In this document: piece by piece, positions 2,761 through 64,000 of the stretch
Position numbering within the stretch: the stretch's first letter is position 1
Layout: each line of letters opens with the position of its first letter
Assembly (NCBI GenBank): GCA_964187785.1
Contig: OZ076409.1
Coordinates: forward strand, 42,968,001-43,032,000
DNA from: Amphiscolops sp. MND2022
Lineage: Eukaryota
Direction of reading: 5' to 3'
Length of the DNA: 64,000 nt
Made by a program: the position numbers and the translations under genes
The notes under the pieces: model-generated
Databases searched by the model: none
What the model was told of the DNA's origin: nothing
Seen by the model: only the letters and a program-made list of their open reading frames with translations

Positions 2761-2793
2761 CTCTTCGCTGCATGTCTGCAGTTCGATTGATTG

Positions 2794-4240
2794 CCCTTGT
2801 TGAAACTGCTTGAACTTTTTGCATGTACTTTAATGTTGCCAGCAACGTTTACTATGATTTTCTAAATTTCTTACGAAAACATTAATGCGGAAATATTTAC
2901 CTGTTGTATTCGAATTTTATCAAGCTCCTTGAAAGATTCTTCAAAGATTTGGCGGAAATTTTAAGCACTGAAGTTTGGCAGGTTTCATCAAGAAGCAGTT
3001 TTAATTTTAAAAGCAAATAAATCGCTCTCATTTTAACAGCCATTTTAATGCAAAATAACTTCAGTCACGTGATAAACTGCAAATTAGCGTCATGTTTAGC
3101 GCCCTATTCGAGAAGCGGTGATCACATCAGATGAGTAGTTGAGAAAACAAAGTGTAATTACAAAGTGATCGTGTCGGTGGGTGATGAAGTGGTATTTTTT
3201 TTCAAATTTAACTGCAGTACCCAGGTTTTCAATCTTTGAGAATCTGTAAAGATCTGCAGGATTTTTTCTGCAGGGTTCTGCAAAGATCGTTACACTGAAT
3301 CTTGAAGATCCATACAGATCTGCAAGATCTTTACAGAAGTGTGCAGATCTGCAAGATCTTTACAGAAGTGTGCAGATTTTTTTAAAGATTTCTGCAGAAA
3401 TATGTTTTTCTGCAGCTTCTAAGGAACCAATATACTGATTTTTGGACTTCTTCAACTACTTCATCGAGTATTTTAGCTAACCTAGGGTCAGTCAGTTGAA
3501 ACTCTCCATCACTCAAAAGTCTTGAGAAGGAAAATTTGTCCCCATCACGAAAAATTTTGTGACGGGAGAAAATGCAGTTTTGGTAAAACACGGTAATTTA
3601 TCCATTTCACTCGAACTTTCCAGAAGTGATTGTTGAACTTTAAGAGGTTCGTTTGCCATATTGACTTCGTTTTGGCCGATAAAATTTGACATGTGGCAAC
3701 CATCTGGGTTGGTCGATGTGTTGATGAAAAGTTGTTTTTGTCATATTTCCTTAACATAGTTTGTTGGAGTATTTTTAGTAATTGCTGTTAACTTGGAATA
3801 CGTTATAGTAATTGTTTGGCTCTGTAAAGATCTGTAAAGATCTGCAAAACTCTACAGATCTGTACAGATTGCTGCAGAAAAATATTTCATCATTTTGCCA
3901 TAAATGAGACTTCTCTCCAGTTTTAAACACTTTTAATATTCGTTTGACATCTCTGTGGGGTTTTTATTGTATTTTTACGTACGTCAGTTTTTTTTCGAAT
4001 CTGCACATATCTGCAAAGATCTGCAAAAATTCTGCAGATCTGCACATATCTGCAAAGATCTGCAAAAATCCTGCAGATCTGCACGGATTCGCAAAGATCG
4101 AAAACCTGGGTATAGAAAATGCAGTTATTCTACAAAATTTACTCTCTAAATTACCACTGAATTTTCTAGGTTTTATAAACAATTACCCTGCATGCAGGCC
4201 TGCAGCATGTAAAAAGTTCCTTGGAGTTTCAACTAGGGTG
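2794..4240. mobile_element. Non-autonomous TIR element (MITE family A) inserted in Gypsy pol
   Basis: Imperfect TIRs of about 32 bp (CCCTTGTTGAAACT..AACTTTTTGCATG / CATGTAAAAAGTT..TTTCAACTAGGG), flanked by TGATTG(C) duplications. Related copies at about 11786-12140, 26600-26940, 30602-30800 and 54190-54723. Confidence 0.8.
3215..4114. mobile_element. MITE family B (CAGT...ACTG termini, Tc1/mariner-like) nested in MITE A
   Basis: TIR CAGTACCCAGGTTTTC / GAAAACCTGGGTA. Subterminal arrays of TGCAGATCT. Absent from the MITE A copy at 54190-54723; inverted copy at 10752-11609. Confidence 0.85.
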
Positions 4241-5348
4241 TGATTGCATCTTTAGCACCTTCAAACTTGAAAGTAACTTGTTTCTGTAGGTTCATAAAGT
4301 CTAACCCCAAAGGAATATCGCAACACAGTGATTTGAGAACAATGACGTGAAAATTCTTGTACACGTTTCCAAAGGCTTTATTTGAAACAATGGATTGCCC
4401 CAGAACAACTCTCGAGCAATCTGTAGATGCCATCTGTACTTTCCGCTCTATCAAATCAACGGGAATAGAATGCTCTTTACCAAAATCCAAAACTTAGAAA
4501 ACTCATCGAGTTGCCGGAATCCAACAAAGCATTAACGGAAATTCTTTCAATAGAAATGACTGTGGTTGACTGAGCTAATCTGGTATGGGGAGGAACCGCG
4601 GCAAGGTGGAATACTGCGGCTGAAACATTTTCCTTGCTTTTGCTGACGTCCCTAGACTTACACGCTTTGGCGAAATGGCCCTTTTGGCCACAGGAATTGC
4701 ATACAGAATTCAACGCTGGACAGTTTTTCCTTGTCGAATGCGTTGCGCCACCACAAAACCAGCAGGACTTCTTCACAGAGGAAACTGCAGCGATAGTAGT
4801 CTCCAGTTCAATAGTCGCAGCGGCAGATACATCATAACTTGGTTTGGTGTAATATTCCAAATTCTGTAAAGCAACATCTTCAGCACGAGCCTGAGAAACA
4901 GCATTCTCTAGCGTAAGTGACGAATTTTCCAATAGCCTGAGGACGAAAGACCGTTTATTAAAGCATCTCGAACCGATTTTTCTCGGTAAACTTCAGCAGT
5001 ACCGCTTTGAAACTTGCTATAGCGACTAAGTTCCTTGAGGCTATGAATGAATTGAACCACCGATTCTCTGGGCTTTCGTTTCCGTGTAGCCAGAAGATGA
5101 CGAGCAAATATAATGTTCTTTTCTTTGATGAAGATTGCCTCCAGAGCTTTTATAGCGTCGTCGTAATTCACTTTATCAGAAACAGCAGGTGCTAGAAAGT
5201 TGGTTAGAACAATAAGTTTGTTTGTATTTTGAGTAGGCAAAACATCGAGAAAGTTTTTGAACGTTTGGTGCCAGTGTTTCGATTCCTTTGAAGCGTTCGG
5301 GGAATCTGGACTGCAATCAAATCGTTCGGGACGTGAAATTTTGTCCAT
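4241..5348 (-). pseudogene. gag: gag and aspartic protease, frameshifted
   Basis: Zinc knuckles CWFCGGATH..C and CNSCGQKGHFAKAC. Protease ALLDSG and LGLDF motifs. Confidence 0.9.
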
Positions 5349-5386
5349 TCTGACTCGAGCCTCGAGATAGTTTATGTTGAATAAAT

Positions 5387-5526
5387 TGATATGATTGAAA
5401 ACACCTTAGGCTCATAAGGTGTTATTCAACATAAACGAACCATTATCTTAAAAGGAAAAAAACAAAGCTTATATAGTTCAGACAACGGAAGAACCTTATA
5501 ACAATTTAAAAGACCACTATACCACA
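5387..5526 (-). repeat. 5' LTR of the Gypsy element
   Basis: Direct repeat of 154-294; TATATAA on the minus strand at 5469-5475. Confidence 0.93.
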
Positions 5527-8500
5527 AGCCCACTATATACTGCCTGATAGGCGAATGCACTACCATTCGTAACAAACTAATTGAAGTGGAGACTTTGGAG
5601 ATTTGGCACAATTTGGAAAAACGCAACAGAGATGATAAGTTTCCTACCCCATGCAGAAAAAATTGTGGGGGCAGACAACTAAAAAAATTCATTGTACAGA
5701 AAACATCGAAAAATTTTGTTGGAATTTTTAATTTAGAAATTGTTCTACAAAATTTTCCGATTTGTCCCACAGTACCCAGAAAGACAATCGGGTCCGTATC
5801 TTCAATCATATATATGATCATATACATCATCTGTTATGTTTTCATATAAATAACCGAAATAATAGATCTGAAAAACATTGTTTGCAATAACATATTTGTT
5901 CTTGACATCATGTATATGATTTTTGAAGTAACAGTTGGAATTTTGGTTCCATGTCCCTCGTTTACCGCGAACTGCGAAATAGTATTTTCGAAAGCCAAGA
6001 CAGAAAAAACGCATCTCCGTGGAGTCTATTCGGACTCGATTCATTGTATAGTAATTTCATTTATGTTTTCATTTCACTTAACGAAGATTTGTGAACATTT
6101 AAACGAACTAAGTTTTCCTTTCAAAGTCATGTTTTCAAATTGAAAATCTTTTTTTTATTTTTTCATACAAACAGAGGGCTTCCAAAAAATTTTTAAATAA
6201 ACATACTTTCAGGGTTTATATATATCATCACTGATGGGTCCCTCTCAACTCGTAGAACGCTTTGACCTTGCAAAAAACAAATAAAATAGGGGTACTTATC
6301 GCTGAATTAAAAGTAAACATGAATGAGATTAGCGTAAAATCGAAATTTAGTGTGTCTTTAAAAAGCTGTTTCCAGTTAGAATTAGTTTTTTTCTGCTCGG
6401 AAGCACTGCCTGATTTTTTTAAAAAAAAACAAGAAGTACTTAAAAGGTGAAATGTTCAAAAGGTGTGGGAAAAGATGACATGAAAACCGAACTAATCAAA
6501 CCATTTAGGACAACTTCACTTCGTCAAACTAAATTTAAAAATTTGAACTCATATTTATTAACAGTTTTGGACTATCTAGCTTGATACGTCAAATCATCAG
6601 CCAAACCAGCAGTTTTTCAAGGAAAACGAAACTTCAATAGACTATTCCAAGTTTTAATTCTTCCAAAAGTGGCCTTTAATTCTTATCAAAATAATCGAGA
6701 CTAAGAAACAGAATATGTGCATCATTCCTTTGCCTGTGATTTTTTTCTTTATTTCTGAAGTACTGAACTCGCTGAGTTATCTGTTTGGAAAGGGAAGTAA
6801 TACTGACGCTTTCAGATAAACTGTACTCTGAAGGAATTTGTCAATTGATAATGGTTCCGTGCCTTCGGAAATGTACTGTTCTAATCAATTTCAGACCTTA
6901 TTCAATCTCTTGGCAATTGAATTTTGTTTTATAGCATTCTGCGCAGCTCAGATCATGGATTTTCATTATATTCATTTATCTATATTTTCAGCTAGTGTTT
7001 AGCCTCAAGTCTCATGTCTGCCACTAACTTTCAGAAACGTTTATTTTGGAGCCTTTCCATAGAATTTTTGCTGATATCGTTGGTTTAAAACACTTTGAAC
7101 TCCATGTTATGTACTCCAGAGTGCCTTGTCCCCAGTGTAAGAACAATGTAATTTTTCAGAAAAACATCACATGTGACAAGTTTTGCTTACGAATTCCATT
7201 CTCTATTTTAAATGTTATATGATATTTTTCGTAGTGCTATTCCCAAAAGCTTTCCTTGTTGTATAAATGATTCGTAAAGCGCTGTCATCCAAAGTGCATG
7301 GATGTTTCATGGATTCCCACAGCATGGCTTGGCATAAATTATGGATGAATCAATTCAGATTTACAAAACCGGTGGTTTCAGAAAGAAGAACCTTGAAAGA
7401 TGATGATTTTGAAATATCATGTATAATTTGTAGTTAGAAACGTAATAAATTCGACATGGTTTCAATTTTTTGATGTCATCATAAAAATTTATGATTCAAA
7501 ATTTTGATTTAATAACATATTTTTGTTGGATATATCCATCAAAAATGTAATTAAATCATAAATTTGTATTCTAGAAAAAAATAGATTTCAACGACTAATT
7601 TCAACAGTGATTTCTATTTTTTGCATATTCCAAGTTCCATTAAACTCAAAGGAAGTCTGCGTTGCCAAAGATATCGGGAAGTGACGAAAACTCGAGAACA
7701 TTGATCAGACAGTAAGTTCAACCTTGAAAGCTCTTTAGCAAAACTTCAAAATCGGTTTTGCTTGAAATTTTTCTGAGCCATCAGAATGATTTCGTGGAAC
7801 GAAAGAAACTTTGCCGGAAGCCGCGCCCTTGATATTATGAGATAATTATAAGAATATAAACAGCAGTTCAAAAGAACAGTTTTTGTTTAAAAGTTCCGTT
7901 AAATTCTCTTTGGTGCAAAAAAGAAACTCTAGTCATGAAAGTCCTCTTCAAAAGTGTCTTCAAAAGTGGACGTTGTGTATAGAAACAATTCGTCATTTTG
8001 TCATCCTTGATTTGAACCTACATTCAGTGAGAGACCTCAAAAAATGGAAAATTCGTCAGATTTGATGGATTGTTTTGTGCAGTGCTCACTTCTTTTGTGC
8101 AATAATATAATGTTCTTTCTTCTCAATAACCTCGAGGTACCTCAAAAATGGCGGGATTTGTTTTTTGAAACTTGCAAATTGGTTTTTTATACTAAATGAA
8201 ACAATTTGTTGATGTCATTTCAGACGAACTTAGTTTCAGTTTTTCCAATTTTTCCTCAACCTGAGAAACTGAGATCAACACTTTTTCGTTCCCACTTCTT
8301 TACAGCCACCCTCCCCCTTTTGAAGATGTTTTAGCCACCCTCCCCCTTTAGGCGATCAAGACCCATTTTAGAGAGAATCTATTCTGTCAATTTCTGTCGA
8401 TTTCTCTACAATCGCTTTTGGAGTAACTGAAGAACGGAATTGAAAATGAAAAGGACTCATCGCGTGTGTCCCAGGCGGCCGCCCGTGATGGGAATATTTA

Positions 8501-8649
8501 TGCAATTCCTAAAGGAGCAGTAGTGACAAACTCCACCCCTACAAACCTACCTCTTCTCTGAGCAACGAGAAGATCCTAGCAAACTAGAAAACTTTGAAAC
8601 ATTAATATGTCATGTAATACCATTGTGATGTCATACATTGTCTCGTTGA

Positions 8650-9771
8650 GACTGTAAACTGCATGTAGAGTTAAATGAAACAATTCATACATGATGTCAT
8701 TTAGAATGTCCTTAAGACATTAGTGGATAAAGCCACCACACCCGTCGCCGCAATTTATATTATTTTGTATTATTTCTAATGTGAGCATGAAAGCAACATC
8801 AGAGACATACCCACAAGCATGGAGTGCTAAAGTGCTTTAATGCAGTGAGTTGATAAAGCAAACATCATGTTACTATTTATAGACGGCTTTGAAATAGCCC
8901 TTTCAAGGCGGCACTGACATCTTTGGCTAGTCGGGTTCACCTTATTTTGATGATGCTATAAAACGGAATTACCCATGAAAACGTCATGCAGCTTTGCTAT
9001 TTTTAGACGATGATTAACCTAAAATTGAAGGTCATGTAATCTCAAGTATATATACCAGAACTCCTGAGAAATGGTGACAATAAATTGTGAAGTTTATAAT
9101 CGAAGTGACAAAAAACCTAAATCTATGAGAGTACACCCATTGTTACAATAATTTAACACTTGGAAATATCTGATTTGAGAAATACAACTTACCAAGTTAC
9201 CAAATTTTCCTCAAAAATACCTTCAAGGAGAAGCAAGAAAGCAAAAGCAAGGCGGTCAAGAGAAGCAGACATAATGTCGGACATAAAGAATATGGACTTA
9301 TGATGGGTACCGGTGATACAATCAGATAAAAATGGATATTGATCAAACGACAGGCTTTTAGAACATGTTAAATAGAGATGATAATGAGGAAGGATACTCA
9401 ATGAGAGGCAATTCCTCACAGGATAATGAAATCAGAAATATGCCTGCAAATAGGAATAATCGTAGCCTAACAAGGGATTCAGACATGTTGTCAGGTGAAA
9501 TGAAATAAAGCATCTCTAATTAGTCTAATAAATGGAATGAATTCCCAAATAGAGTCCGCGATAAGTTCCGCAGTATCCGAGAGAATCATCCCTCAGATGC
9601 AGGGAGTTGTGGTGGCTATAATAAGCAGACAGCTAGAGAGTGTGTCACCACTGTCCAGAAGACCTCAAAACATGGAAGGTGATGAGGGCAGTGTGGATGA
9701 AAACAATATACAAAATAGGAACTTCTGTTCTCGTCAAAACGTAATGGAACCTGAGGTCGAGAGTCCTTACA
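8650..9771 (+). mobile_element. Decayed solo-LTR-like remnant carrying a gag-like N-terminal ORF (left boundary uncertain)
   Basis: Translations PSRRSKKAKARRSREADIMSDIKNMDL and MNSQIESAISSAVSERIIPQMQ resemble the 55005-55604 ORF. Similarity ends at ...CCTTACA (9771). Confidence 0.65.
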
Positions 9772-10665: not shown

Positions 10666-10751
10666 ATTTCACTCAATGCGCCAATCCAAATTGAAAGTGA
10701 GAGGAAATTTTAATTGGCCGAGAACGCCAAAGGGGGACGATTTCTTAACCA

Positions 10752-11609
10752 CAGTTCCCTGGTTTTCGATCTTTGCGAATCTGTGCAGATCTTCAGGATT
10801 TTTGCAGATACGAGCAGATCTGCAGAATTTTTGCAGATCTTTGCAGATATGTGCAGATTCCAAAAAAAACTGACACCATCAGAAACGCAATAAAAACCCC
10901 ACAGGGATGTCAAACGAATACTTAAAAAGTTTAAAACTGGAGAGGTTTCTCATTTATGTCAAAATAATGAAAAAATTTTCTGTAGCAATCTGTACAGATC
11001 TGTAGAGATTACAGATCTGTACAGATCTTTACAGAGCCAAACAATGACCAATAAATTACCATAACGTATTCCAAGTTAATAGCAATTACTAAAAATACTC
11101 CAACAAACTATGTTGCGGAAATATTACAAAAACGACACTTTATCAACACATCCACCCAGAAGGTTTCCAGATGTCAAATTTTATCTGACAAAACGAAGTC
11201 AATATGGCAAACGAGCCTCTCAAAGTTTAACAACCACTTCTGGAAAGTTCGAGTGAAATGGATAAATTACCGTGTTTTACCAAAAACCGCACTTTCTCCA
11301 GTCACCAAAATTACCGGGATGGGGACAATTTTTCCTCCTCAAGAATTTTGAGTGATGGAGAGTTTCAACTGACTGACCTTAGGTCAGCTAAAATACTCGA
11401 TAAAATAGTTGAAGAAGTCCAAAAAGGCAGTATATTGGTTCCTTAGAAGCTGCAGAAAAACATATTTCTGCAAAAATCTTCACACTTCTGTAAAGATCTT
11501 GCAGATCTGTATGGATCTTCAAGATTCAGTGCAACGATCTTTGCAGAACCCTGCAGAAAAAATCCTGCAGATCGGCACAGATTTGCAAAGATCGAAAACC
11601 TGGGTACTG
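10752..11609. mobile_element. MITE family B, full copy
   Basis: CAGTTCCCTGGTTTTCGATC ... GATCGAAAACCTGGGTACTG followed by TA; inverted relative to 3215-4114. Confidence 0.88.
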
Positions 11610-12196
11610 TATGTCAGTGACAATTAATATTTTGTCCAATCCTGAAACCACGCATGGGTCCTCCATAAGAGGATTGGAAGCTATAGAAAATACATGTACA
11701 GTAATAAAAAACATCAATAACATCCACTGGGAGTAACAGCTAAAGTGGCTGCATGCACGGTCAATTTCTGTCAAAAGCACTGCTCGTACACTTGTTGGAA
11801 TTGCTTGAACTTTCTTATACCGTGAAAGTTGCCTACATCGTTACTACGATTTTATAAAACTATTTTGGAAACTTCCATCGACACTTAATTCCCTGTTGCT
11901 TTCAACTTCTATCAAGTTGCTGCTCAAAATTGTCAAGCTGCTGGTGCCGTCAAGTCATGCAGATATCATTGTGCATATGTTTCTACTTTGGATGAAGCTG
12001 AGAATCTTCAAATTTCTGCCATTTTAATGCAAAACACATTCACTCCGCTTGAAAACTGCCAATCATCGTCATATTCAGGGTGCTATTTGAGAAGCGGTGA
12101 TCACATCAGATGATTACTTGAAAAATCGACGTGTGAAACTGGGATAGCAGAAATTCACGGCAAATTTTTGTCAATTTGCCGGCGCTTTTCGCAAAG

Positions 12197-12950: not shown

Positions 12951-13551
12951 AAACAAGTTCATCAAATATCAAGGAACCGTAATCTTCACTGAGAATAAAG
13001 TACTTAAAAACACTCGTAAAGAACCTTAAATATAATTAGCCTGGACTAGAAACGGATTCTATGAATTTAAATGTCTGTTAATTCTGAAATTTTGGAATCC
13101 AAGAATTTTGTCCATCTTGATAAGTTTCGAACCTGGAGTGATGAGATATCTCCGTAAGATCTTATTAGAAATCTTACCTTGGGATCCACGGCCGCCGAGA
13201 TATAGTAAGAATTTGGCAAGATGCTAACCAAAGTGTCAACCCTGGTACGTAAATAATGAAGATGAAACAATAGAAAATGGATCAAGGATCAGGATAGCCT
13301 ACAATAACTGCTGAAGGGAATGGATTAACTGTGACCATGGCACACACATAACGACGTAGAAGAAGGTTATTTTTCGAGTGGCTTTTGGTTATGAAATAAT
13401 GAGTGGTTTAGAATTGAAATAAAAACATTTCGTCAACATAATGTTCAGTATGACTGACACCAGAAGCTCAAAAAATACAAGCGCTTACTGTGTACTTGGT
13501 AGAAGAAGTTTCTGTTAACCTCGAAATTATTGAAATAATATATGTACTTAC

Positions 13552-13695
13552 TTTGACTTTACGTTCCTCTAGAGGTGTCAGTCGTTTTTCGTGTTTCTTG
13601 AAGAACTTTCGTTTCCTCGCTTGCAGATTGAACCATGTGAACGAGAAGGATTTCACATGAGGTAATGTGGCTTCGATGAATGGATGAAAATCTTC
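13552..13695 (-). CDS. NFI: Nuclear Factor I (CTF/NFI) internal exon, N-terminal DNA-binding region
   Basis: 144-nt phase-0 exon bounded by TTTTTTCAG and GTAAGT. Encodes [48 protein letters not shown], matching the conserved [35 protein letters not shown] signature. Confidence 0.93.
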
Positions 13696-14091
13696 CTGAA
13701 AAAAGTAAAGATACTCGATTGCGTTCCATATAAAGAAGTTAAATCTGTCCAACCTCTTAGAAAAAAACTGTTTCACACAATTTGCTTCCATGTTTATGAT
13801 TCTACAGGTAGACAAAATAATCAAGGAATGCAGATTTTTAGACACGCAAGAAGTGGTTTTTTTTTATTTTATCTTTGGATTGGAAAAGTTCATCTATCGT
13901 TTCATGACGTCATCAACCAGTATATATACAAGACTATTATAAGCGCGCGCAACCGTTAAACCCACATTATTCGTGACATAATTCTCTCATCAGCCGTCGA
14001 GTCACTGCTGCAATTGCTATATCAAAATAAAACTATCCCAAATTTACCGCACCACCCCAACACAAGCACCCGTACTGAGACTCCATTCAAT

Positions 14092-50200: not shown

Positions 50201-50596
50201 TCAAAAATATCAAAAGGACTTCAAAGTGTCAAGTATTCTCTTCTACAGTGCCCGCATGAGAAAAAAATTGAAAAAAAATTACCGAATTTTTTGAAATTTT
50301 TTTGAAGTTTCCGGTACGTCGCATAGTGCCGAAAAATGTAAAAGCGGGCCCTTTGGGAGTTTTTGAATATCCATTGTTTTGCAAAATAGAAAAAATTGAA
50401 GGGGGACCATTTGCAGACGTTGAGTTGAAAAAGTTTGCGAAAAAATGTCTCACAAAGCCGAAATAACCCGCACAAAAAATTTTTGGTCAAGGGCGAGACT
50501 CGAACGTACGTCCTGCTGCTTGGCAGACGTCAAAAATCCTCAAAAAATCAGAAGCATAAGAAGTTACATTAGTGTGGCAGTTAGTGGAAGCCAGCT

Positions 50597-53500
50597 CGTC
50601 ATGGTTTGGTCCCTGCATGTGGGGACGAGAGCAGTTATCAAAAACCAAACCAACGCGAGGTGGGGAACAACTCACTGAGGGACCAAGGTTCACACGGAGA
50701 ACGTCACACCTCGCACACCCGAAAACGTCGGAGAAAAGCCGCCTTCGACGTCACAAGCCAGGCGATAACGTTGGTTTTTCGGTGGAGGGACCAGGTCAAC
50801 CTGCCTACTGGGCCCTGCTAATCTTGGAGGCAGGAGATGTGGAACAAAACCCCGGGCCTACAAACAGCTCGATATGCAACAAAGAGTTCATCGATGAGAA
50901 ATAAGCAGCAGTATGGTGCCACCTCGGAGGTTGGGTCCACCTGAAATGTACACATCTCAAGAGGATCAGACAGTGGGTCGCAGATTTTGTGTGTCAGAAG
51001 TGCGAGTGGTGCACTAAAGCTATGTCACCGGCGGAGGACCCCACACCCGATCCAGAAACATGAGACGAGAAAAAGAAACGACGACAAAACGAAAAAGCAG
51101 AACGAAGAAGGAGAAGGAAGCACATACGGCATAAAAATTGGGGGAGACGCGAGCCAGCCTGAAAGGAAGAGCAACAGCAACTGAAATCTGGACCTGAAAC
51201 ATACAGCGGGCCAGAGTAGCCTTCCCGAAAAGGAACAGGTTCTGCGAAATCCTGAAAACGATTGGCAAGAGCGCTGCGGAAGTGGTAATGTTAACAAAGA
51301 TGAAAGAAACTGAAACCAGAATGAAGTGGATCAAATCAGAAGACCTGTATGGCGTCCTTGTTCACGGAAAGAAAAACGGGGTGCTGCTTAGAGACGACTG
51401 GGGCAGTTAAGTGGAAAGAACAAGGATGCAAGCGTTACTGTGGAGAAAGATGCACATCAGTCGAAGCGGACGGTACTGGTTTTATAGCAATATATCAGCC
51501 TCTAGGAAACAGCGACGTGGTGGAGTTCGCCGCGTACCGCGAAGAGCTGAACGGCCTAATCCTGAAGTGCAAACAAAAGACAAAGCTGATAATTGGATGG
51601 GGATCTGAACTCGAGCGTTGGTAACGACACAAAGAGAGAAAAGGACGAAGTGGCTGGTCCTTATGGTCTCGGCTCAACGAACTCGGCTGGCGAAAACCTC
51701 ATCAACTGGTGTCACGAACAAAACCTGTCCTTTGTCGAGTCTTTCTTCAACTACAAACGGCGAAGCACGTGGAAATGCCCGGCAAGGGGCACGTGGCATG
51801 AGCTAGACGAGTTGCTAGAGAAACAGCAACAGAGGAGCAGACTAGTGAAGATACGAGAGAACGATATACGAGTTGCTGACGACGACAGACAACACGACAA
51901 AGCGCTCCGAAGACAGAGCCACGGAAGCACCGAAACAACTGGAAGTGAGCATCAGCTACATAGAATTCAAACACGAACTAGCACAGATGAAGGACAGCGG
52001 TATAGACGGAGTAACAGTAAACGCAGTAAAGTCTCTGACAGAGAGCAACAAACACAAACTATTCCAATGCATGTTGAAATTACTGGACAAACCGCCGCTA
52101 ACATTCCCCGACGAAACCAAAGAAGGATGGGTAGTGCCGCTGCATAAAAAAGGCTCCCGAAATGATCTCAACAATTACAGAGGCGTATCTCTGCTGCCGC
52201 TGATTAGCTGCATAGTAGTCAAAATTGTCGCCACAAGAATAAGAGTATGGGCAGAAACACTGGATATACTTGGGGAAAACCAGAACGGTTTCCGCATCGG
52301 CCGATCAACCTGCGACGCCACCCAGATAGTACTCCGAATAGACGAGGAAACCCGCAGAGTTCTCGGATACTGCGAAGTAGTGAAGCAGGGAAGGAAGGTC
52401 TGAGCAGCGAATGGATACCAGCGCGAGGCCTGAGAGAGGGTTGCGCAACCTCACCAACCCTGTTTAATATATACCATGCGGATGCCATGAGAATAGCACA
52501 ATCCAAAAGAAAAGAAAAGGCGAAAGAACAACAATAGGAGTGCGGACTGACATGGACATGGACACCTGGTAACTGCTTACCGGCAGCTGAACCATCAAGA
52601 ATTCTACACAGCAAGAAAAGCGAGACCATAAACATAACAGACACACTGTTCGCAGATGACTCAACGTTAGTCGGATGGACCGATGAACTGGCGACTGGGA
52701 AAGAATTGGTCAAAGAATCCATGCTGGAGTTCGACGAGAAATGCCACGACGGCAAAGAAGATTCCATAGCCTTCGGGACGGTAGGCGCCCAATCAACAAG
52801 AATGCTAGGCACCCTCCTGGGCTGGATAGAGGACTGTAACGCCAGAATAAAACGAGGTAACGCCGCCTGGGCAAAAGTACGCAAATGGCTATGGAGATCC
52901 ACCTTGAGTAAACGAACAAAAGCCTTCGTAATCCAAGCAGTTGTTGAATCAACCATGTTCTTTGACGGTAACGCTCGCTCGTGGAGACTTTCGGACATCA
53001 AGAAACTGCAGAGCGTGGCCGACCGATGCTACAGATTCATATGGAACAACGGGAAAAGCAGGGCTTTGATAAGAATGCAGGAAGAAAAAACCAACAGCTA
53101 TGAAGTACGGCGACAGCTTAACATCACGTCCATACGAACAAAGATCGAAACAAGATGCCTAGAAAGGATTGGACACGTCCTTCGGATGCCCAACAACCGT
53201 CTCACGAAACAAGTCGTTTTGGGGCACTGGAAAAAAGAACGCAGGTCGGAAGGAAGACTGAACGGAGGTATCCTAAACTATTGGAGACGGATAGTGAAAG
53301 AAACCGGCGAGGACTGGACTAACTCAGAAAATTCGTGCAAAGATAGGAAGAGTTGGAAGGCAATCATTTCAAAACTAAGAAAATTCCTCAGAGAATGGGA
53401 AGAATCTATGCGCAAACACACGCGAGGAGAAGAAAAAGCACAAAAAACGCAAATGAGAATAACAAAAGATCTGACATGCCGCTGGGAAGGGTGCGGAAAG

Positions 53501-53933
53501 AAATGCAGAACAAAGACAGGCCTAGTACAACATGAACGAAAGACACAAAGAGTTGACAAAAAAGCACAAATGCCCAAAATGTAGAGCAGAATTCAAAGAA
53601 TACACCAACCTGACAAATCATGTAAAAGCGTGCCGAGGCACAGTAAGAGGAACATGTCCAGACTGCGGAAGAAAAGTGCTACCGACAAACATGGCCACAC
53701 ACAGACGAGAAAACTGCCCAAACCAAAACCAACAACAACGGCAAAAGAGAGACACGAACCAAATAGAAGGAATAGAAATCAACAGATTCACAGGAAAAGA
53801 TGAACGACGATCATGCCCTGAAGGAAGCGGGGCCTGGATCACAGCGAAAAACATGGCCCGACACCGAAATAACAACTGTCCTCGTGGGAAGCAACCAAGG
53901 CCCCTGGAGGGCGTAAATGGAAAATGATGATGA
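50597..53933 (+). mobile_element. RTE-like non-LTR retrotransposon (2A peptide, PHD, APE, RT, C-terminal zinc fingers), decayed with internal deletions
   Basis: 16-bp TSD TTAGTGGAAGCCAGCT (50581-50596, 53934-53949); (ATG)n 3' tail. APE: GDLNSSVG, TWHELD. RT: NYRGVSLL, QNGFRIGRST, GLREGCATSPTLFNIY, LFADD. Also GHVLRMPNNRL and several CxxC..H zinc fingers. Confidence 0.93.
50809..50859 (+). other. 2A-like (StopGo) ribosomal skipping peptide
   Basis: WALLILEAGDVEQNPGP matches the D(V/I)ExNPGP consensus. Confidence 0.9.
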
Positions 53934-55004: not shown

Positions 55005-55604
55005 TTAATTTGTGTCGTAAGCACGAGAGTTTGTGCTTGTGAGTCCGTCTTTGGGACGGTCATTGGCCTGTTTGTTCTTAGAATCGTTCCTAGGTTCTGA
55101 GTTTTGCAGTGCTTCGGAATATCCTTCCGGTCTCTCGGCCGGAACGTTCCATCTCTCTTTGGTCAATTGTCCCGACCCGGCCATAACTACATTCTGGATT
55201 TGAGGCAAAATTTGGCTGCTAATTGCCTCATTTATGGCTCTTTGAATCTGAACACTGACACTATTCATCATTTCGTCCATATCTCGAGATATACGTGAAT
55301 TTAACTCACTCGACAATCTATTGATCTCAACGCTCGAACACTCTCTGATTGAATTATGGCCTAATTCGGTATTTGGACTTGGTCCATTATTTCTCGGATT
55401 TGGGAATCCATTCTCATTTTCATCTTCAAATTCATCTCCAAACGAGCTTTCTGGCCTACCGGCCTGATTACTATTCACACTTTCATTTCTCTCATTTCTT
55501 TCAAAATGGTTTTCGCCTAACATAATGTCCAGATTATCAATATCTGATAACATCTCAAGTCCTCTAGACTTTCTCGCTTTCTTTTGCTTTCTAGTGGTAG
55601 GCAT
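55005..55604 (-). CDS. LTR-encoded N-terminal gag-like ORF (truncated at the LTR end)
   Basis: MPTTRKQKKARKSR.. followed by coiled-coil SSELNSRISRDMDEMMNSVSVQIQRAINEAISSQILPQIQ. Stops two codons after ...AYD at the CA terminus. Homologous remnant at 9208-9771. Confidence 0.65.
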   Translation of the reverse strand: MPTTRKQKKARKSRGLEMLSDIDNLDIMLGENHFERNERNESVNSNQAGRPESSFGDEFEDENENGFPNPRNNGPSPNTELGHNSIRECSSVEINRLSSELNSRISRDMDEMMNSVSVQIQRAINEAISSQILPQIQNVVMAGSGQLTKERWNVPAERPEGYSEALQNSEPRNDSKNKQANDRPKDGLTSTNSRAYDTN

Positions 55605-56804
55605 TAAGACAGAACCGGGTTGAATAATTCAATTATCAAAACCGGAAAACTGACAAAAGTCGTTGTATTATTTCGATCTTTATCAAAGTGAAGGTATGAG
55701 ATTAATAATCTTTTTACAGGAATATGGCTATATATACTCGTAAAAAGATGACACTCACATTCCACAAATCCTTTGATCAAGAAAACATCACATGTTTATG
55801 GCCTTAACAGGTCATGTGACAAGTATTATTACGGCATTGGGTTGGGTATTCAACACTTCAAAGCGGATATTTTAGGGTGATGTCCCAATTGGGAAAATTC
55901 CTAGTTTCAGGGTGGTCCTTAGGAATTCAACATCAAAAGAATGATATTTAACGGGGCACACAAGCAGCACCTTCAAGTGTCATGTTTATAAACATCATCA
56001 ACATTACCTTGTCAGCAAATACCAATGTCTATTGAAGGAATGCAAAAAGCATCTCTTCGGAATGCACATGCGACACGTGTCACCACGCGCCTATTATTCA
56101 ACGTAAGGGGAAGCAACTTCAAATAATACATGTCTAATCTATTTAAATACCACTGCATCATTAAATAAGAGTATCTCTCAAAAGGGCCGAAATTGGCCAA
56201 ATCCTGATTAATGGTACAATACTAGGGGGAGGAAGGGTAAAAGACCTTAATCGGCCTTTGATCAGCATCTAGTTTATTCGGTCCGTTGGGGGGTGCGTTG
56301 GTATTATTTTAATATTAAAACACCTTTGAAATGATCCCCAACTAATATGGTTAACTATAAAGTACAGATAATACAGCATCACTCATTGCATCAAGACGGC
56401 CTAAACCGGCCATTTGACCAAGGTACAAAACAATTCGTGGACATTAAGTTAATTGGCCGTATTCGGCCGCTACCAAATCAAAGCTATATTGCACTTGTGA
56501 ATTGGAGCGCTGTGATTGGTTGAGGGAATGAGCTCAAGTGACGTTTTTGGATTATCGCTGAGCGTCACTTGAACTCGTTTCCTATACCGCTTTACAGTTG
56601 CTTATACTAGTATTGCTTTTCGATTCAATCGATTTACATTTCAACTGCACTTTCACAAAGTAGCCTAATTTGGACATCTCCAAAATGTACAATCTTTAAC
56701 AGACTAATATTAACTTCATTCAAATATGAAACTTTTACATGAAAACATACAAAGCAACAACTAATCGTTAAATAAAACTAGTTTTTAAGGTCCATAACCT
56801 GTAT

Positions 56805-57590
56805 TCAGTATTTTGGCAGTGTACTCGGTGTTGGATTTTGTTCTCCTGCCGATGTAGTATAGTTATTTCCGTCACAGGCGGCAGCCTGCGACACTGCGGG
56901 AGCGATGAAAAGTAGACAACCTGCATTCAGTCCATTTATGTACGCTTCTCGCCTCAATTTGGTGACAAATTCGGGTTCCCCGCGCGGCGTTGATCTCTCC
57001 ATGTACCAATTGATCTTCTCGTCTTTAATCTCATCTACTGATTTCCCACATACCATGCACCCAGTATATCTCTGGCTGCTCAGATTGTCATGGGGTCTGG
57101 TATTTTGGATGTGGTAGGACGCATAGAACCCGCTCGTTGATGGTTGGACTAAAGGGATATCTTGACTGGGTCCCCTTTCGTGGTCCGGCGGCGACATCGG
57201 GGACTCTAGAATCGGTAGGATCGTATTACACAGTTCAATGCGTGACTTTTCCATCCTCTTAGGCGGGGCATAGCACCTTTCTAAGTCGAAGTACTTGTGA
57301 TCCATTTTTGGCGTCTTCTCAGCATTTGTACCGGATGTACTTGGTCCGGCTACTGACACATCTTCTTCGGGTATCTCCGAAGTCATTATCCTTCCCCCAA
57401 TGAGCATAGGGCTAGATGTAACTTCTCTCTCTATCCGCGCTATCAGTTGTTCTGTATCGGTGGAACAATCCGTCTCCCAGTCTGATGCTTCGCTCTCGCT
57501 ACTCGATATGTAGATTACAGATTCCTCAGAGCCTTCTGAGTCGAAATCTTCCAAGTCAAATAACTTCCTTGCGAGATTGTATTTACTCAT
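56805..57590 (-). CDS. Accessory ORF, 261 aa, acidic N-terminus and CxxC motif; function unknown
   Basis: Intact ATG-initiated ORF with coding-like GC content; motif CMVCGKSVDEIK. Confidence 0.7.
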   Translation of the reverse strand: MSKYNLARKLFDLEDFDSEGSEESVIYISSSESEASDWETDCSTDTEQLIARIEREVTSSPMLIGGRIMTSEIPEEDVSVAGPSTSGTNAEKTPKMDHKYFDLERCYAPPKRMEKSRIELCNTILPILESPMSPPDHERGPSQDIPLVQPSTSGFYASYHIQNTRPHDNLSSQRYTGCMVCGKSVDEIKDEKINWYMERSTPRGEPEFVTKLRREAYINGLNAGCLLFIAPAVSQAAACDGNNYTTSAGEQNPTPSTLPKY

Positions 57591-57939
57591 GATGACTTTC
57601 TTCGCTATTTTGAGGCTTGTAGATGCAACTGTATCGTGATGAAGTTTTAGGATGGAATGAATTTGTCAAATCCAAAATTTAGCCGAGTAAGGCGTTTTCC
57701 CGAAGTTTCCAATTTGGCGGTTAGACCTTCGGTTAATCGTCCTGATCTGTCATAAACTTTTCAGAATGGAATTCCTTGACTTGTCGGCTCCCTTTGATAA
57801 CATGATGTTTACCCCTCATCAGTGTCATCACTAGAAGAGGTGTGAATGACTCTCAGCTTATGAATATCAACTACACCCGTCTCAAGTGGGTAATTAACGG
57901 GTCGCTTGCAAGCAATTAACGGCGCTTGTCGGATAAAGC

Positions 57940-58080
57940 TCACTGAAATGGCTTCAGCCAATCAAATTTGAGCTTCGATAAATTTGGAAAATTGAATAAT
58001 AAAGATGGCGGAAAATAATAATTTTGAATAACTAAAATGGCAAAAATAATAAATCTAAATAATCCAAGATGGCGAAAATT
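57940..58080. promoter_or_regulatory. Putative bidirectional promoter core (YY1-like and CCAAT motifs)
   Basis: AAGATGGCG at 58002 and 58066, AAATGGC twice, AGCCAATC at 57956; located between the divergent ORFs. Confidence 0.4.
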
Positions 58081-58504
58081 CTAACTAAGGGTAACTGGAC
58101 AAAACGACGAAACAAAACAGGGCAACCGGCCATAACCGGCCCTTTAACTAAATAAGCTGTAAATAACAAAGTCCATTGTACACTTCGCTGGCAGACTCCA
58201 TGTACAGAATAAATATGTAGGTAATCCATAATATTAGTCTGGTAATAATCTTCAGCCACGAACTCCAACTTTCAATTATTTTACCCAATTCCAATTCCAT
58301 TTAATTCTAATCATCTTACATTTGTCTTCTTTTATTTGCAATCCTTTAACTGACATCTGTCCACACACATCCGTAGCGTTTTCATTGTCGCTGTCCGCAG
58401 AAGTATCCTTATCCCCTTCATCTCCGACCGTGAACGGCCGCCACTCAGTTTCTCTACCAGTCAGCCCGAAACAACTCTTGTTGGAGCAACGTCGTTGGAG
58501 AGAC

Positions 58505-61500
58505 ATGTCTTCGAACACAGGTTGGTCTGGTTTTCATATATTGAACTAGTTTAGCTTGATCAGGGCTAGACTTTGTTCACAATAAGCTTCCTGTTCCCAC
58601 TAATAAGCGCGTGATAGCTCATTTTGTTCAAATTCTCAAGTACTTCCGGAAGATTTCTAATGCGGTAAAATGGATTCTTTTCGAGGAAGCATACCGCCAA
58701 ACTTTATCTCTTTTCGTTTAGAGAATCAAACAACCGAAGTTGTCGATGTACCAGCCGAACCTACTGTTACTACTTCAGCAGCTAGTCCCCCAACCGAAAC
58801 TGGCCCACGAATCCAGAATCCCGGTGTGTCCCACGAGCTATCTCTGAGCCGATCAGAAGACGTCACCTCTACTCACAGTGCTGACAGTGACCCAGATGTG
58901 ACATTGTATGCTGAATCCATGGTCCAACGAATGCAGCAGGCACAACTCATCACTGCCCAAGAGAATGATCAGCTCGAATCCGCCCAGCTACATGGTCAAG
59001 AACCAGTCAATGATCCCTCGGGAGTTATGTCAACAACGACTGAGAACCGAAAGTCGAGCACTCCCATTCAGTCAGATGAGGAGGGAATCCAGGAAGCTGA
59101 TCTGTCTGCTTTGGAATCTGCTTTGAGAGTCATTGAGGCCTCTGCGTCTCAGTTGCCCGAACTGAGGAACAGGGACGAGTCAGACCCTTTAGATGGAAGC
59201 GGGGTTCAACCCAAGACCGATGAAGATAACGCCTCGTCCGTTTGTGACGTACCCTCACTCCCTGGCGGTGACCCTAAGATACGATTCACTGAAGAGTTGG
59301 GTGAAGAAGAAGAGTCTACTGGAGAGTCAAGCAGACTGGTCCCTGTGGAACTGTACGGACGTCCCCCATTCGGCCCTGAATCTGAAACTGAATGTGAAAG
59401 GGAAACTAGTTCCGAATGCCAGCCTTTGGGAACTGGAAAAACGCGGACAGCTGGGGGAAGTTCAAGTCAAGACAAACCCCCGGAACTGTCGGGTCGCAGT
59501 AGGGCCATCCTGAAGGAATACTTCGATTCTGCATCCCCAATTAGACTTCCTGTCGGGCACACTACTATCGCCCTCACAGAGCTTCAAATGTATCACCTGC
59601 TGCGTACGCTCACAGACGAGACTCTCCGCCAGTCTTTCAACACCATGGAAAGAATGGTAATAGACGCTGTCCGAGGCACCCCGACTGCTCTCCCTTCACG
59701 CACCTCCCATTTCCAACTCAAGAGAAGGGCACAAACTCCCGGACCTGGGGCTCAAAGTGATTCTGAGTCGGACAGTGACCTTGCCGGAACAGCCTCAGAT
59801 CAGCCAGAATCAAGCAGCGACGACTCTGGTGGGGCTTCTTTCTACGAGGAGAGTGACAGTGCTACTGAGATGGACTTGATAACGAAGTCCTTCAAACAAA
59901 CTCCTTCTCGACCTCTAGTCGGAGGGGTCCAGGCGGACACGTCCAGTAGCCAACAGCATATTTGGCCAGATACTGAGGGTTCCAGTAGTCAGGATACCAC
60001 CTTATATGAAATGCGCGAACAGGCTCAAAAGGACCAACCAGAAGGACACTCTAAATCGAGGAAGAAAAAGGGCAATAAAAGACTTTCCAGGAGAGGTGTA
60101 CCCATGAGAGAAGAATTCTTCTCTAAGATAGGATGGACGAGGTCGTTCATTTCCGGGCCGGCCGATCCCTTGCATAACCCGCTTATGGTCTGGTGCCATA
60201 TTTGCAAGAAGAATTTTTCTATAAAATCAAAGGGGCCCTACGAGATTTTGAGACACCACCGGACAGATCGCCATCTGAGACGTGACCAGAGGTGGCGTTA
60301 CGAACACCTGCGCAGCGTTGACCCAGTCAGTGGCAAAGTGCAGCATCGAGTTAGAGGGGCCAACGGCAAGATCTTGACGAAGATCGAACTGGCCAATCAG
60401 CTGCCCAAATTCATCAAAGCTGAACTGGTGGACATAGGGGAGAGGTTCCCTTTCTACGAGGACTTCATCCGGGGGACCACTACAGCCTTGGTCACACAGG
60501 AAGCGAGAGTGAAAACTCAACTTTGCCTGGTGGGCGATTTCATAAAGACTCTGGGTGACTTATCCGTCCTGAGGAACATGTGGTCTAGGATGGGCGCCTT
60601 TACCAACCACCAAGCCACTGTGTGCGATTTTGATTGGAGCGAGGAACGCATGAGTGTAAGTATATTCCTGGTAATCCATCCACTAATTTGAGAGTTTCCT
60701 TCTAAAATAGTTCCATTTCCTTTTCAGGCCATATTCCAACACTTCTTCACTAGCGCCCTGACCGACATTGCTGAACATGTCACTGCTGAACAATGCTTTG
60801 CTATTGAATTTGAGGCTGCCGGGATATATCGCTACATGAGCGTCAAGTTTTGGAGGGGTCATGAGCTTTGCCGGGTCTTCATTTGCCGAAGTTCCCTTCC
60901 CGCGACTGACGTGACTGGCGAACTGGGGTCTCTAGCCCGATTTTTGTCAGCTGTCTCGACCCAACCGGATGTGGTGGCATGCTCTGGGTGCCACGTTGAT
61001 TTCGCAAAGACGATAGACCAGTCCGACTACTTCCCACAAGGAGTCCAATGCTGTTTCCGCTTCGAACAACTATCATTACCTACTTTGATGCACAAATCCA
61101 AGTATTCTGTCTTTGGCCAAATAGACTTCTTCTCCGTCCTCCAGGCTCTGATGGTGTCTCTGGGTGGCTCTCTGACTGAAGAATGGGCAATGCGAAGTCC
61201 TGAGCTTACTAAAGTAAGTATTTTGCTTCGTCTTTCTTTTAGTAGTCGGGGGTTGGTTAACTTAGGTACCATAACGAACAGTCCCTAATCGGCTAAATTG
61301 GTTTTAACAGGCAGTGACCAGTTTCAAACTCGACATCAGGACTCTGCCGGTTCTCTGTACGGAGCTGGCCAAGGAGTGGAAACCCATACTCCGCTATTTG
61401 ACCGAGCATGCCCCCATTCAAGGAGGTCAAGGAGTCCGTGGCAGGGTTAGATTTGCTTTCATTCCCTTAATGGTATAATCAGATGGTTTCATAATAAGGT

Positions 61501-62877
61501 CTTCAGCCTTTCTCTAGTCTACCAAACTCTTTGTGGAACCTAACGTACGTTTTTCCTTTAAGGCACAGAGCTTCGAGTGGTCCCTAATCTGTGACGAATT
61601 TTTCGTCGTCAAGTTGGAGTTCTTCAACAGGCTCGTGAGCGACTGTAAGTAGTTTACCTTTAGGGCAGTCATCCAGAGTTTTACTCCACTCTAGGTTTTG
61701 CTTTGTGTTTCCAGACGTGGCAAGTTTCCCAGTGAACCTCCAACACAGACGTGATTCCTCCTTTTATCTATGTGGAGAAGTTTGCCAATTCTTAAGTTCA
61801 CTTTGCTCTCGCGTCTATACTCCTGATACGGTGCCTCTAGCGAATGCCTGGTTCCTGTTGCTGCGCTTCCAGACCAGTGAGGCCACTTTCTTGGATGGAG
61901 AGGAATACCTGATCCGTTTGAGGCTCTCTCATAAGGTGTCATCGGCCAGCAAAGCAAAAGCGGAAGGAATGCATTTCGGGAAAAAATCGGAACGCCCAGC
62001 GATCCTGGCTACTACAGAGACTGTGAAGTCCGATTTCATCAAAGACAGTCAGCAATATATACAATACCTGATCAATGAGATCCTTCGGCAGACTGGGCTG
62101 ACTACTAACATTGTGAAGGGGATGGCCGCTTTCGACCCTCTTATCCTGTTCAAGCGACCTATGGAAATAGCCCTGCGGCACTTTGACATTCTCTACAGTA
62201 CCTTCTCTCTCCGTTCTTGGGTCTCCAGTGCTAACGAGTCCTTGTGCCGTGATCAATACATGCAGTTACTTGACCATCTACGTACAGCCTATGACCCAGA
62301 TTTCGACATATCGAGTGTTTCAGCTGATCTGATTGAGTTCCTGTCCGAGTTGGAATTCCTCCGTAATCGTAGCTGTTTGTTCTACTTATTCAAGTTGTGT
62401 TGCTTGTGCGCTACGACTGTCAGTCACACGTACCCTGATGTCACCTTCGGGACAATTTCCACTGCTGGACGTCATAACAGATTGACCGACGTTATTCTTC
62501 CCAGCCAAAGTTACGTGGCTAACGTGCGCGATGCGGTTGCTTTCTGTAGCGACAACGGGAACCTGACCAAGTTCATCGACTTTTCTTCTTCTTTCGGACG
62601 TTCTGCATTTGCCTCTGACTATGATCCTTGGACCTACGTGGACAATTTCGGACGTTCGAAGATTTATAAGTCGTTGCTGGCCTCCTACCGGACAGCACTT
62701 TCCACCCCTCAGAAAACTCTAGTCCGGAGTGCACCAGAGGATCAAAGCTCCGTAGCTGATACATCTGCTGTGAAAGCCCCTTCTAGCACTAAACGAAGGA
62801 AAATGGAACGTCGAGCTTCTCGGGCATCCTCATCGTCCACTGTTGGAGCCATTGAGCCTGGCTCATCTAAAGACTAA
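58505..62877 (+). CDS. Six-exon gene, about 1271 aa: disordered acidic N-terminus, BED-like zinc finger and hAT-transposase-like body (probably catalytically dead)
   Basis: Exons 58505-58520, 58722-60655, 60728-61213, 61311-61445, 61563-61644, 61715-62877. All five introns are GT..AG with compatible phases (1,0,0,0,1), giving a 3816-nt open frame. Finger WCHICKKNFSIKSKGPYEILRHHRTDRH. Exon 1 is the least certain. Confidence 0.85.
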
Positions 62878-63118: not shown

Positions 63119-64000
63119 TTAGTATCTGAAGTCTTCTGAGTAGTTTGGATTAGGGTTAGGCCTGAGATTATATTTCCCTCCTCTAGGGCTCAGACTTTCA
63201 TTTCTAGCATCGCTTTCGGATATTTCGGGCACGATAATATCATCCCCCCTTTTTGGAGAGGTTTGTGTATCGTTTTCATTCATTGAATTTCTTTCTGAAA
63301 AAATTTCATTATTTTCTGGTCCACCTGCCGTACTCGGAACAGAATTTTCTTGGTTTTTTGGGGAAACGGCCGGATTCGGCCAATCAGATTTGGTATTTTC
63401 TGTCACTGCAGTAGCTTTATCTCTTTCAGTGACGTCATCATCCAAGCGTTCATTCCGGCTGTGTGTCGCGTTGTCGTTGTTTAATTCTCGCGTGATTATG
63501 TAATACGCTTCATTCTCGTTTGCGTCATTTGTATTTTCTGCCGTACTCGGCCGTTCGCCGTTCGGCAAGTTAGTTGGAATAGGTTCGTTGCCTCGTGTAA
63601 CTAGCTGTTCGCCGAAGTCTGTTTCCCACGTTATGACGTATAAATCGTCTTGCGGAATGACAATTTCTTCGTCTGGCTGCAGACGTTGTTCTCGGAAATT
63701 GTCCTCAAGTGGTTGATTGGGAATGAACTTTTTAAGGCGAATACGATGCAAAATGTGAGTTTTGTTTGTATTGATCCTTCGTACTATGTAGTTTTCATTT
63801 GGTAAAACCTTTTGGACTACAAATGGTCCAACCCAACGGTAATCGCGGAATGGAATTTTTGATCCTTGATGATCCGCTTTCGGCTGTAAGACGAAACAGT
63901 AATCATTCTCCTTCAATGGAGCAGCTTTTGCTTTGCGGTCGTAATATTCTTTGTATTTGATGTACGACTGCATAATGTTCTGCTTCGTTTTGTCAATTAG
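63119..64000 (-). CDS. pol: Gypsy pol C-terminus: integrase GPY/F region and long acidic tail (5' partial)
   Basis: KEYYDRKA..RWVGPFVVQKV..NYIVR..HRIRLKKF; ends KYNLRPNPNPNYSEDFRY*. No disruptions. Confidence 0.9.
   Translation of the reverse strand, partial: LIDKTKQNIMQSYIKYKEYYDRKAKAAPLKENDYCFVLQPKADHQGSKIPFRDYRWVGPFVVQKVLPNENYIVRRINTNKTHILHRIRLKKFIPNQPLEDNFREQRLQPDEEIVIPQDDLYVITWETDFGEQLVTRGNEPIPTNLPNGERPSTAENTNDANENEAYYIITRELNNDNATHSRNERLDDDVTERDKATAVTENTKSDWPNPAVSPKNQENSVPSTAGGPENNEIFSERNSMNENDTQTSPKRGDDIIVPEISESDARNESLSPRGGKYNLRPNPNPNYSEDFRY

Follow-up and report, generated by a model that had tools for sequence, protein, structure and literature searches.

A gene of predicted hAT transposase ancestry carried antisense in a likely Gypsy retrotransposon, and a palindrome through which it might act on the long terminal repeat

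A 64,000-nucleotide stretch of contig OZ076409.1 from Amphiscolops sp. MND2022 (positions 42,968,001 to 43,032,000; hereafter the window) carries on its plus strand a gene running from an ATG at 58670 to a stop codon at 62877, with five predicted exons and 1283 codons. We refer to it as the cargo gene; it is antisense to a likely Gypsy retrotransposon and is flanked by an integrase-like tail and the predicted 3' long terminal repeat (LTR) of that element. Splicing out four GT-AG introns joins three long open reading frames (ORFs) of the plus strand into one open frame (Table 1). All four junctions are crossed by homologues in which the intron happens to be readable: ten are listed for the first junction, six for the second, one for the third and six for the fourth. 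The third junction is the least certain because a single read-through homologue crosses it; a splice donor at 61473 was dropped for 61446, across which the homologue P0178 aligns. A search for proteins of 677-2000 residues containing exon 5 found none, which is weak evidence, and no second copy of the cargo gene was found in positions 1-55000 of the window.

The initial annotation had described the segment 60090..62440 as apparently encoding a degenerate hAT transposase that kept its BED-type finger and lost its catalytic residues, and had suggested a DNA-binding regulator. All the motifs it quoted are present, spread over three exons of one gene: the finger C509-x2-C512...H530-x4-H535 (60194-60274), FAIEFE (60797-60814), VVACSG (60971-60988) and LFYLFKLCCLC (from 62377). 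Both of its basic patches also exist, KSRKKKGNKR at 60053-60082 and KRRKMERR at 62791-62814, although the latter falls outside the range it had assigned to the protein.

The finger region matches 249 clusters (among 761 candidates), exon 2 matches 106 clusters (among 141 candidates) and exon 5 matches 423 representatives at the 50% identity level; because each of these parts has so many matches, the cargo gene is not a chance reading frame. The best 120 of the finger-region matches, every one from an ENA assembly, show 66-100% identity, whereas identity in exon 5 reaches down to 26% among the best 150 of the 423 representatives. Exon 5 is closest to a cluster of 84 members at 90% identity or more, of which 14 of the 15 listed are full length, and the cargo gene is present in hundreds of copies. 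A tree of exon 5, made by a quick method and without an outgroup from 48 of 86 rows (those of at least 250 residues), shows several deep subfamilies. Judged from these sequences, the cargo gene is old, diversified, high in copy number and constrained at the protein level. Scans of metagenomes, viral contigs, prokaryote genomes and phages for related loci gave nothing usable; the sole metagenome locus (L001) was a 26-codon match, where tblastn of the spliced protein found nothing at E <0.7.

Conservation is uneven along exon 1, for which identity was calculated over 54 divergent homologues among 70 full-length ones. Mean identity is 88% in the finger and 65% in the helical region that follows. 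The finger was rightly described as kept: the pattern C-x2-C-x17-H-x4-H is conserved in 117-120 of 121-122 homologues (C509 in 117/121, C512 in 120/121, H530 in 120/122 and H535 in 119/122), and the 20 residues preceding the finger region hold at least six Lys or Arg in 94 of 96 homologues. The N-terminus, which had been given as about 500 residues of acidic, disordered sequence, is indeed acidic, but its roughly 475 residues are not uniformly variable. Two islands stand out in it, residues 1-20 with a mean identity of 76% and residues 271-356 with 63%, against 22-30% in the other stretches. The second island (58670+810 to +1068) is a candidate effector domain, for which Pfam and the PDB gave no match.

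AlphaFold models of two parts of the protein, one of the finger and core and one of the C-terminal half, point separately to Hermes, as the initial annotation had proposed to check with AlphaFold and Foldseek. The N-terminal half was modelled from P0053, a homologue whose frame continues across intron 1, with a mean predicted local distance difference test score (pLDDT) of 55 and about 60 in the finger. Residues 231-316 of P0053 are predicted to form an RNase H-like beta1-beta2-beta3-alpha-beta4-alpha-beta5 arrangement, mostly with pLDDT 74-82. When the finger and the RNase H core were submitted to Foldseek, Hermes chains took ranks 1-5 (best E 3.9e-3, probability 0.90, TM 0.20). With VIA, the longest alignment of the P0053 model was again to Hermes, starting in the Hermes N-terminus from residue 23 on and covering 204 residues, from finger through insertion domain (Z 6.8, root-mean-square deviation (rmsd) 13.7), while integrase cores and actin-like folds reached Z 6-7 over about 80 residues of the core. 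The model of the window's own exon 5 is all helical (pLDDT 85.8); in VIA, its sixth-ranked row was Hermes 367-599 (Z 5.5, rmsd 5.5), with 160 residues aligned, compared with 41-88 in the other 49 rows. In the Atlas, exon 5 falls with PF05699 clusters (24 of 30 matches, 0.91-0.92), and P0053 lies nearest to FAM200/ZBED5/GTF2IRD2 clusters (0.82-0.84), which is under the tool's lead threshold and is taken as a lead only. The PF05699 profile itself matches none of the 86 exon-5 members, and the finger has no match to Pfam zf-BED. We favour hAT ancestry because the two halves land on consecutive stretches of Hermes, though each score is modest, and on these models we consider that ancestry highly probable. 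The RNase H-like core and the helical insertion are each in line with the two separate models.

The predicted fold appears to have lost its active site. The candidate positions 689 and 691 in the first strand are both Glu (in 70/76 and 73/76 homologues, respectively), and Glu occupies the position of the first catalytic Asp (691; 60812) in each of the 69 proteins whose sequence fits the strand pattern. In alignment A3, nine rows seemed to have Asp in the first catalytic column, but these were misaligned and contained exon 1 only. The statement that the strand has no DE is literally true of this copy, but it retains two conserved Glu, often followed by Asp. The positions of the second Asp and the last Glu were placed via secondary structure and motif spacing. 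The former (60983-60988) is occupied by Ser and Gly ending the fourth strand (S748 in 105/108, G749 in 102/108), and [ST]D[GN]A is absent from all 106 exon-2 homologues. In the CxxH motif, C771 (61052) is kept in 102 of 110 homologues, with Phe (F774) at the +3 position in 108 of 110 and no His. For the last Glu, we counted 16 residues back from the conserved R1152, taken as Hermes R588, since we take the last catalytic Glu of Hermes to be E572. The resulting position 1136 (62431) is Tyr in the window; most rows have Leu, Tyr or Phe there and 0 of 76 have Glu, and the next residue is Pro in 90 of 104 rows. The ERxFS motif is missing from each of 150 exon-5 representatives, as had been reported for this copy. 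Across the family, the canonical D, D, E and CxxH are all lacking.

Cleavage by Kat1 requires the DDE residues, and hairpinning requires CxxH (PMC4763223). Because the catalytic positions are replaced and Kat1 needs both DDE and CxxH, the family is, on its sequences, very likely dead as a transposase, with a small chance of a non-canonical site left by conserved acidic residues of exon 2. A nuclease or metal site of that kind could draw on E689, E691, E775 (Glu or Asp in 88/110) and further conserved acidic columns of exon 2. Yet the end of beta4 bears no acidic residue, no acidic column is conserved in residues 1126-1150 (the best is Asp at 45%), and Kat1 mutants in DDE were inactive and the CxxH mutant was without hairpinning (PMC4763223), which makes such an enzyme improbable. 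The earlier description of a degenerate hAT transposase is thus largely supported: an RNase H-like core is predicted, Hermes is the top Foldseek match and the catalytic triad is absent. That the protein is a regulator rather than an enzyme we infer, with a candidate DNA site behind it.

The surroundings of the gene suggest what it is carried by. The integrase-like ORF on the minus strand ends 241 nt from the stop of the cargo gene, stop to stop; its match to PF22938 scores 22.7 bits, below the curated cut-off of 27, and the integrase core would lie beyond the window. On the other side, gene B belongs to a cluster of 136 members, and its last codons run into the LTR, which also carries the start of another ORF and thus has coding sequence at both ends. 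We take this LTR-internal ORF to be the start of gag. The 3' end of the LTR at 55013 was set from the cluster of that ORF (63 members), in which 10 of the 15 listed members reach the same AYD motif and then diverge; the continuation after AYD is always compatible with a codon starting with A, matching the LTR end ...GACA. The 5' end (56893, TGTC) was set where similarity to a solo-LTR-like remnant begins exactly (30/40 versus 10/40 identities), and an LTR start at 56075 was dropped on this similarity. Contigs of the same size as those of close cargo copies were found for gene B in 4 of 14 cases and for the LTR ORF in 3 of 14, compared with 0 of 15 for a distant-subfamily control, counting listed members only and leaving out the record identical to the window. 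We regard it as quite probable that the cargo gene is carried by the LTR element.

The remnant (8467-9771, plus strand) is decayed and comes from a distant relative. It starts with TG, ends with CA, is flanked by GCGTG and GCCTG (4/5 matching), and contains the C-terminus of gene B and then the start of the LTR ORF, in the same order as in the element. Around it lie inverted arms of about 0.9 kb (3215-4110 and 10751-11610), 87-95% complementary and made of GATCTGCA-type repeats. Right before the TG of the element's LTR, in the place expected of a polypurine tract, a pyrimidine-rich stretch of the minus strand (56894-56925) ends in CAG and resembles a splice acceptor.

We also considered a passive passenger, the gene being what is left of a hAT transposon that inserted into the retrotransposon and decayed. 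Nested transposon insertions are common, and the window is rich in element remnants. However, the frame is open with four intact introns, the replacement residues are identical family-wide, and the finger is conserved far above the linkers. Moreover, no terminal inverted repeat (TIR) with an 8-bp target-site duplication (TSD) was found around the cargo gene, where 85 candidate pairs of 14-nt arms (at least 11 matches) gave a best TSD of 5/8. This is the least probable of the explanations we weighed. The introns would be compatible with life in a retrotransposon: on the minus strand they end in CT...AC, so that, being antisense, they would escape splicing from the genomic RNA and might persist for that reason.

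A candidate target of the finger came from a search for short repeats in the non-coding DNA of the element, which returned GGCC pairs exactly 10 bp apart. GGCC-N6-GGCC occurs six times in the window compared with 0.19 expected, five of the six lying in the element. The relaxed form GRCC-N6-GGYC occurs ten times compared with 0.93 expected, eight times in the element (the last 9 kb) and twice in the other 55 kb. Seven of these palindromes lie in 2280 nt of the element's non-coding DNA and none in the 4208 nt of the cargo gene. A spacing of 6 yields eight sites and other spacings yield none or one; spacer sequence varies between the sites, with A+T prevailing in its middle (27/32). None of 100 block shuffles reached the score over all dyads. 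The pairing of the finger with this palindrome is plausible by analogy, because cooperative binding of a quasi-palindrome by two BED domains is known from Hermes (PMC10368747) and the hAT-derived CGGBPs mostly prefer CGG or CGC (PMC8097297). The window also holds abundant short repeats of the D9/D16 type (12195, 19406, 21405, 44863 and 50158, plus inverse copies), which end in GC half-sites at 10-bp steps akin to near-matches of the palindrome.

On this basis, we propose, with a probability of roughly 0.5, that the protein, a predicted full-length hAT fold lacking D, D, E and CxxH, activates its own element in a sequence-specific manner via GRCC-N6-GGYC in the LTR. In this scenario, an ancestral element would have acquired a hAT transposase gene in antisense orientation, from a nested hAT transposon or a domesticated host copy, and the antisense introns, not being splice substrates in the genomic RNA, would have survived reverse transcription. 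An internal promoter within 57591-58669 would drive the cargo gene, and the basic patch would deliver the protein to the nucleus. There, fingers acting in pairs would contact two half-sites of 4 bp each, separated by one helical turn, both in the LTR and close to the cargo gene's promoter, and the acidic N-terminus or the dead core would recruit transcription or chromatin factors, resulting in activation or anti-silencing with feedback. The broader statement, that an animal LTR-retrotransposon lineage domesticated a dead hAT transposase as a Tas/Tat-like trans-activator reading GRCC-N6-GGYC in both LTR and internal promoter, is put forward more tentatively.

Several observations weigh against this proposal. 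The palindrome was picked after looking and relaxed once near-matches had been seen, three of six real control blocks give similar p-values via other repeats, and the distant LTR remnant at 8467-9771 is without the palindrome. Regarding the carrier, no polypurine tract precedes the LTR, the 30 nt preceding 56893 being pyrimidine-rich (minus strand); gag, the reverse transcriptase, the primer-binding site, the 5' LTR and the TSD of the element would lie beyond the window, and the linkage to pol is known from this one copy. As for the fold, sequence and profile searches of Pfam and the PDB gave no match to a hAT family or a solved structure, no Foldseek match of any model reached E 0.001 or better, and the exon-5 model found nothing at E <=0.001 in the PDB and BFVD. 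The Z values from VIA are within the range that the tool calls common, with integrases, Hsp70 and actin folds tying with Hermes on the core, and the weak N-terminal model (mean pLDDT 55) was built on an alignment that held misplaced rows.

The locations of the palindromes bear on what a DNA-binding cargo protein would do. It might bind the LTR sites on the element's cDNA and act post-transcriptionally, as a nuclear-import or chromatin-tethering partner of integrase. The retention of the whole transposase scaffold rather than of the finger alone would suit the gathering of DNA ends, the basic patches are conserved, and plant antisense ORFs have been proposed to function in nuclear import (PMC7264820). 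However, the sites lie 425-790 bp inside the 5' end of the LTR and near the internal promoter, away from the termini, and the acidic N-terminus better suits a transcription factor, so that we consider this role unlikely, albeit the foremost of the alternatives. Next in rank, and also unlikely, the protein might repress the LTR in a self-limiting way, or the antisense transcript might outweigh the protein. The anatomy would be the same, the site at 55800 lies downstream of a TATA-like box at 55990, and roles of antisense RNA have been discussed (PMC7264820); on the other hand, conservation at the protein level across 26-100% identity speaks against a role of the RNA only, and the high copy numbers suit an activator at least equally.

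The concentration of the palindromes in the element's non-coding DNA also argues against a captured ZBED/FAM200-like host regulator whose targets would be host genes or the silencing machinery, the palindromes then belonging to another factor. Such an origin would fit the four introns, the FAM200/ZBED5/GTF2IRD2-like clusters nearest in the Atlas, and the lack of the palindrome in the remnant LTR although the finger is near-invariant among the homologues seen. The matches, however, include no named host orthologue, and we rank this explanation below the two others, as doubtful.

Table 1. Predicted features of the cargo gene and its carrier element, in window coordinates
Feature	Position	Strand	Details
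Exon 1 (residues 1-662)	58670..60655	+	acidic low-complexity N-terminus, islands at residues 1-20 and 271-356, basic patch, zinc finger, helical region
BED-like C2H2 finger region (residues 476-547)	60095..60310	+	88% mean identity, most conserved part
Intron 1	60656-60727	+	72 nt
Exon 2 (residues 663-824)	60728..61213	+	predicted RNase H-like core
Intron 2	61214-61310	+	97 nt
Exon 3 (predicted)	61311..61445	+	donor 61446
Intron 3	61446-61562	+	117 nt
Exon 4 (predicted)	61563..61644	+	homologues P0126, P0144, P0170, P0178, P0195 and P0259 cross exons 4-5
Intron 4	61645-61714	+	70 nt
Exon 5	61715..62877	+	helical insertion-domain-like and hAT C-terminal-like region, basic tail
Integrase C-terminal-like ORF, 3' end	63119..64000	-	runs off the window; PF22938, E 1e-4 to 4e-4
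Gene B (261 residues)	56805..57590	-	acidic N-terminus, a single CxxC, no match in Pfam, oriented divergently to the cargo gene
Predicted 3' LTR (1881 bp)	55013..56893	-	termini TGTCG...CGACA
LTR-internal ORF	55013..55604	-	cut at the LTR end
Five GRCC-N6-GGYC palindromes, LTR	55800..56468		starts at 55800, 56185, 56243, 56398, 56455
Two palindromes, divergent intergenic region upstream of the cargo gene	58128..58439		starts at 58128, 58426
One palindrome, low-complexity integrase-like tail	63368..63381		

Elsewhere in the window, a Nuclear factor I pre-N-terminus exon (13468-13863, minus strand; PF10524, E 2.6e-23) points to an animal host. A separate, fragmented LTR retrotransposon with zf-CCHC, RVT_1 and rve domains (315-5833, minus strand) is broken up by other repeats, and a broken LINE-like (long interspersed nuclear element) sequence, weakly matching RVT_1 and also containing C2H2 fingers, lies at 50560-53927 on the plus strand.

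Next, the cargo gene can be compared with known systems. hAT transposases such as Hermes and the FAM200/ZBED5/GTF2IRD2/KIAA0543-like proteins share with the modelled cargo protein the order of finger, helical region, RNase H core, helical insertion and C-terminal region. Unlike them, it lacks D, D, E, CxxH, TIR and TSD and is not an active hAT member; it has about 475 extra N-terminal residues and rides inside a likely LTR element. In host-domesticated hAT factors such as CGGBP1 and ZBED proteins, the hAT finger is reused for sequence-specific binding (PMC8097297), which is also what we predict for the cargo protein, and the preference of CGGBPs for CGG-containing DNA (PMC8097297) is akin to the CGGCC half-site. 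These factors, however, are host genes, and CGGBPs are mostly truncated (PMC8097297), whereas the cargo gene is full length, exists in hundreds of copies and resides in another mobile element.

The position and orientation of the cargo gene, from pol to the 3' LTR, resemble those of the antisense ORFs of plant Gypsy elements, namely Grande gene23, RIRE2 and Retand TRP28/PF04195 (PMC7264820, PMC11963269). These are described as having their own promoter, being nuclear and having a proposed DNA-binding regulatory role (PMC7264820, PMC11963269), and we propose the same for the cargo gene. The origin and function of the antisense accessory ORFs of plant LTR retrotransposons are stated to be mostly unknown (PMC7264820). 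The cargo gene differs from them in its predicted hAT origin, its predicted splicing, its likely animal host and its candidate site, and it does not encode a TRP28 protein, as PF04195 (Transposase_28) matches neither exons 1, 2 and 5 nor their homologues. An antisense accessory ORF is thereby given a predicted hAT origin, a reason for the persistence of its introns and a candidate site in its own LTR. The GRCC-N6-GGYC palindrome repeated in the element is new here.

In foamy viruses, the DNA-binding protein Tas/Bel1 comes from a 3' accessory gene that has an internal promoter, and it targets both this promoter and the LTR. Tas/Bel1 is encoded on the sense strand and is not derived from a transposase, unlike the cargo protein, for which activation is a proposal only. 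TnpA of Spm, a transposon-encoded, transposase-derived and sequence-specific regulator (bioRxiv 10.64898/2026.08.24.746577), can also be likened to the cargo protein, and the loss of catalysis has been described as a route to a transcription factor (bioRxiv 10.64898/2026.08.24.746577). TnpA serves the DNA transposon that is its source, whereas for the cargo gene the donor would be a class II element and the carrier a class I element. A word search of the main text of that preprint found no LTR, Gypsy or retrotransposon, although its supplements may list further cases. An LTR element with a hAT-derived cargo gene was likewise not found in the open-licence literature searched, a scope that leaves Repbase-type records and subscription papers outside. 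If our proposal is true, a class I element, and not the host, domesticated a class II transposase, which possibly lies behind the high copy number of the lineage. The conversion of transposases into transcription factors would then also occur inside other mobile elements, giving retrotransposons activators or anti-silencers of their own, and the idea of an accessory regulator becomes testable.

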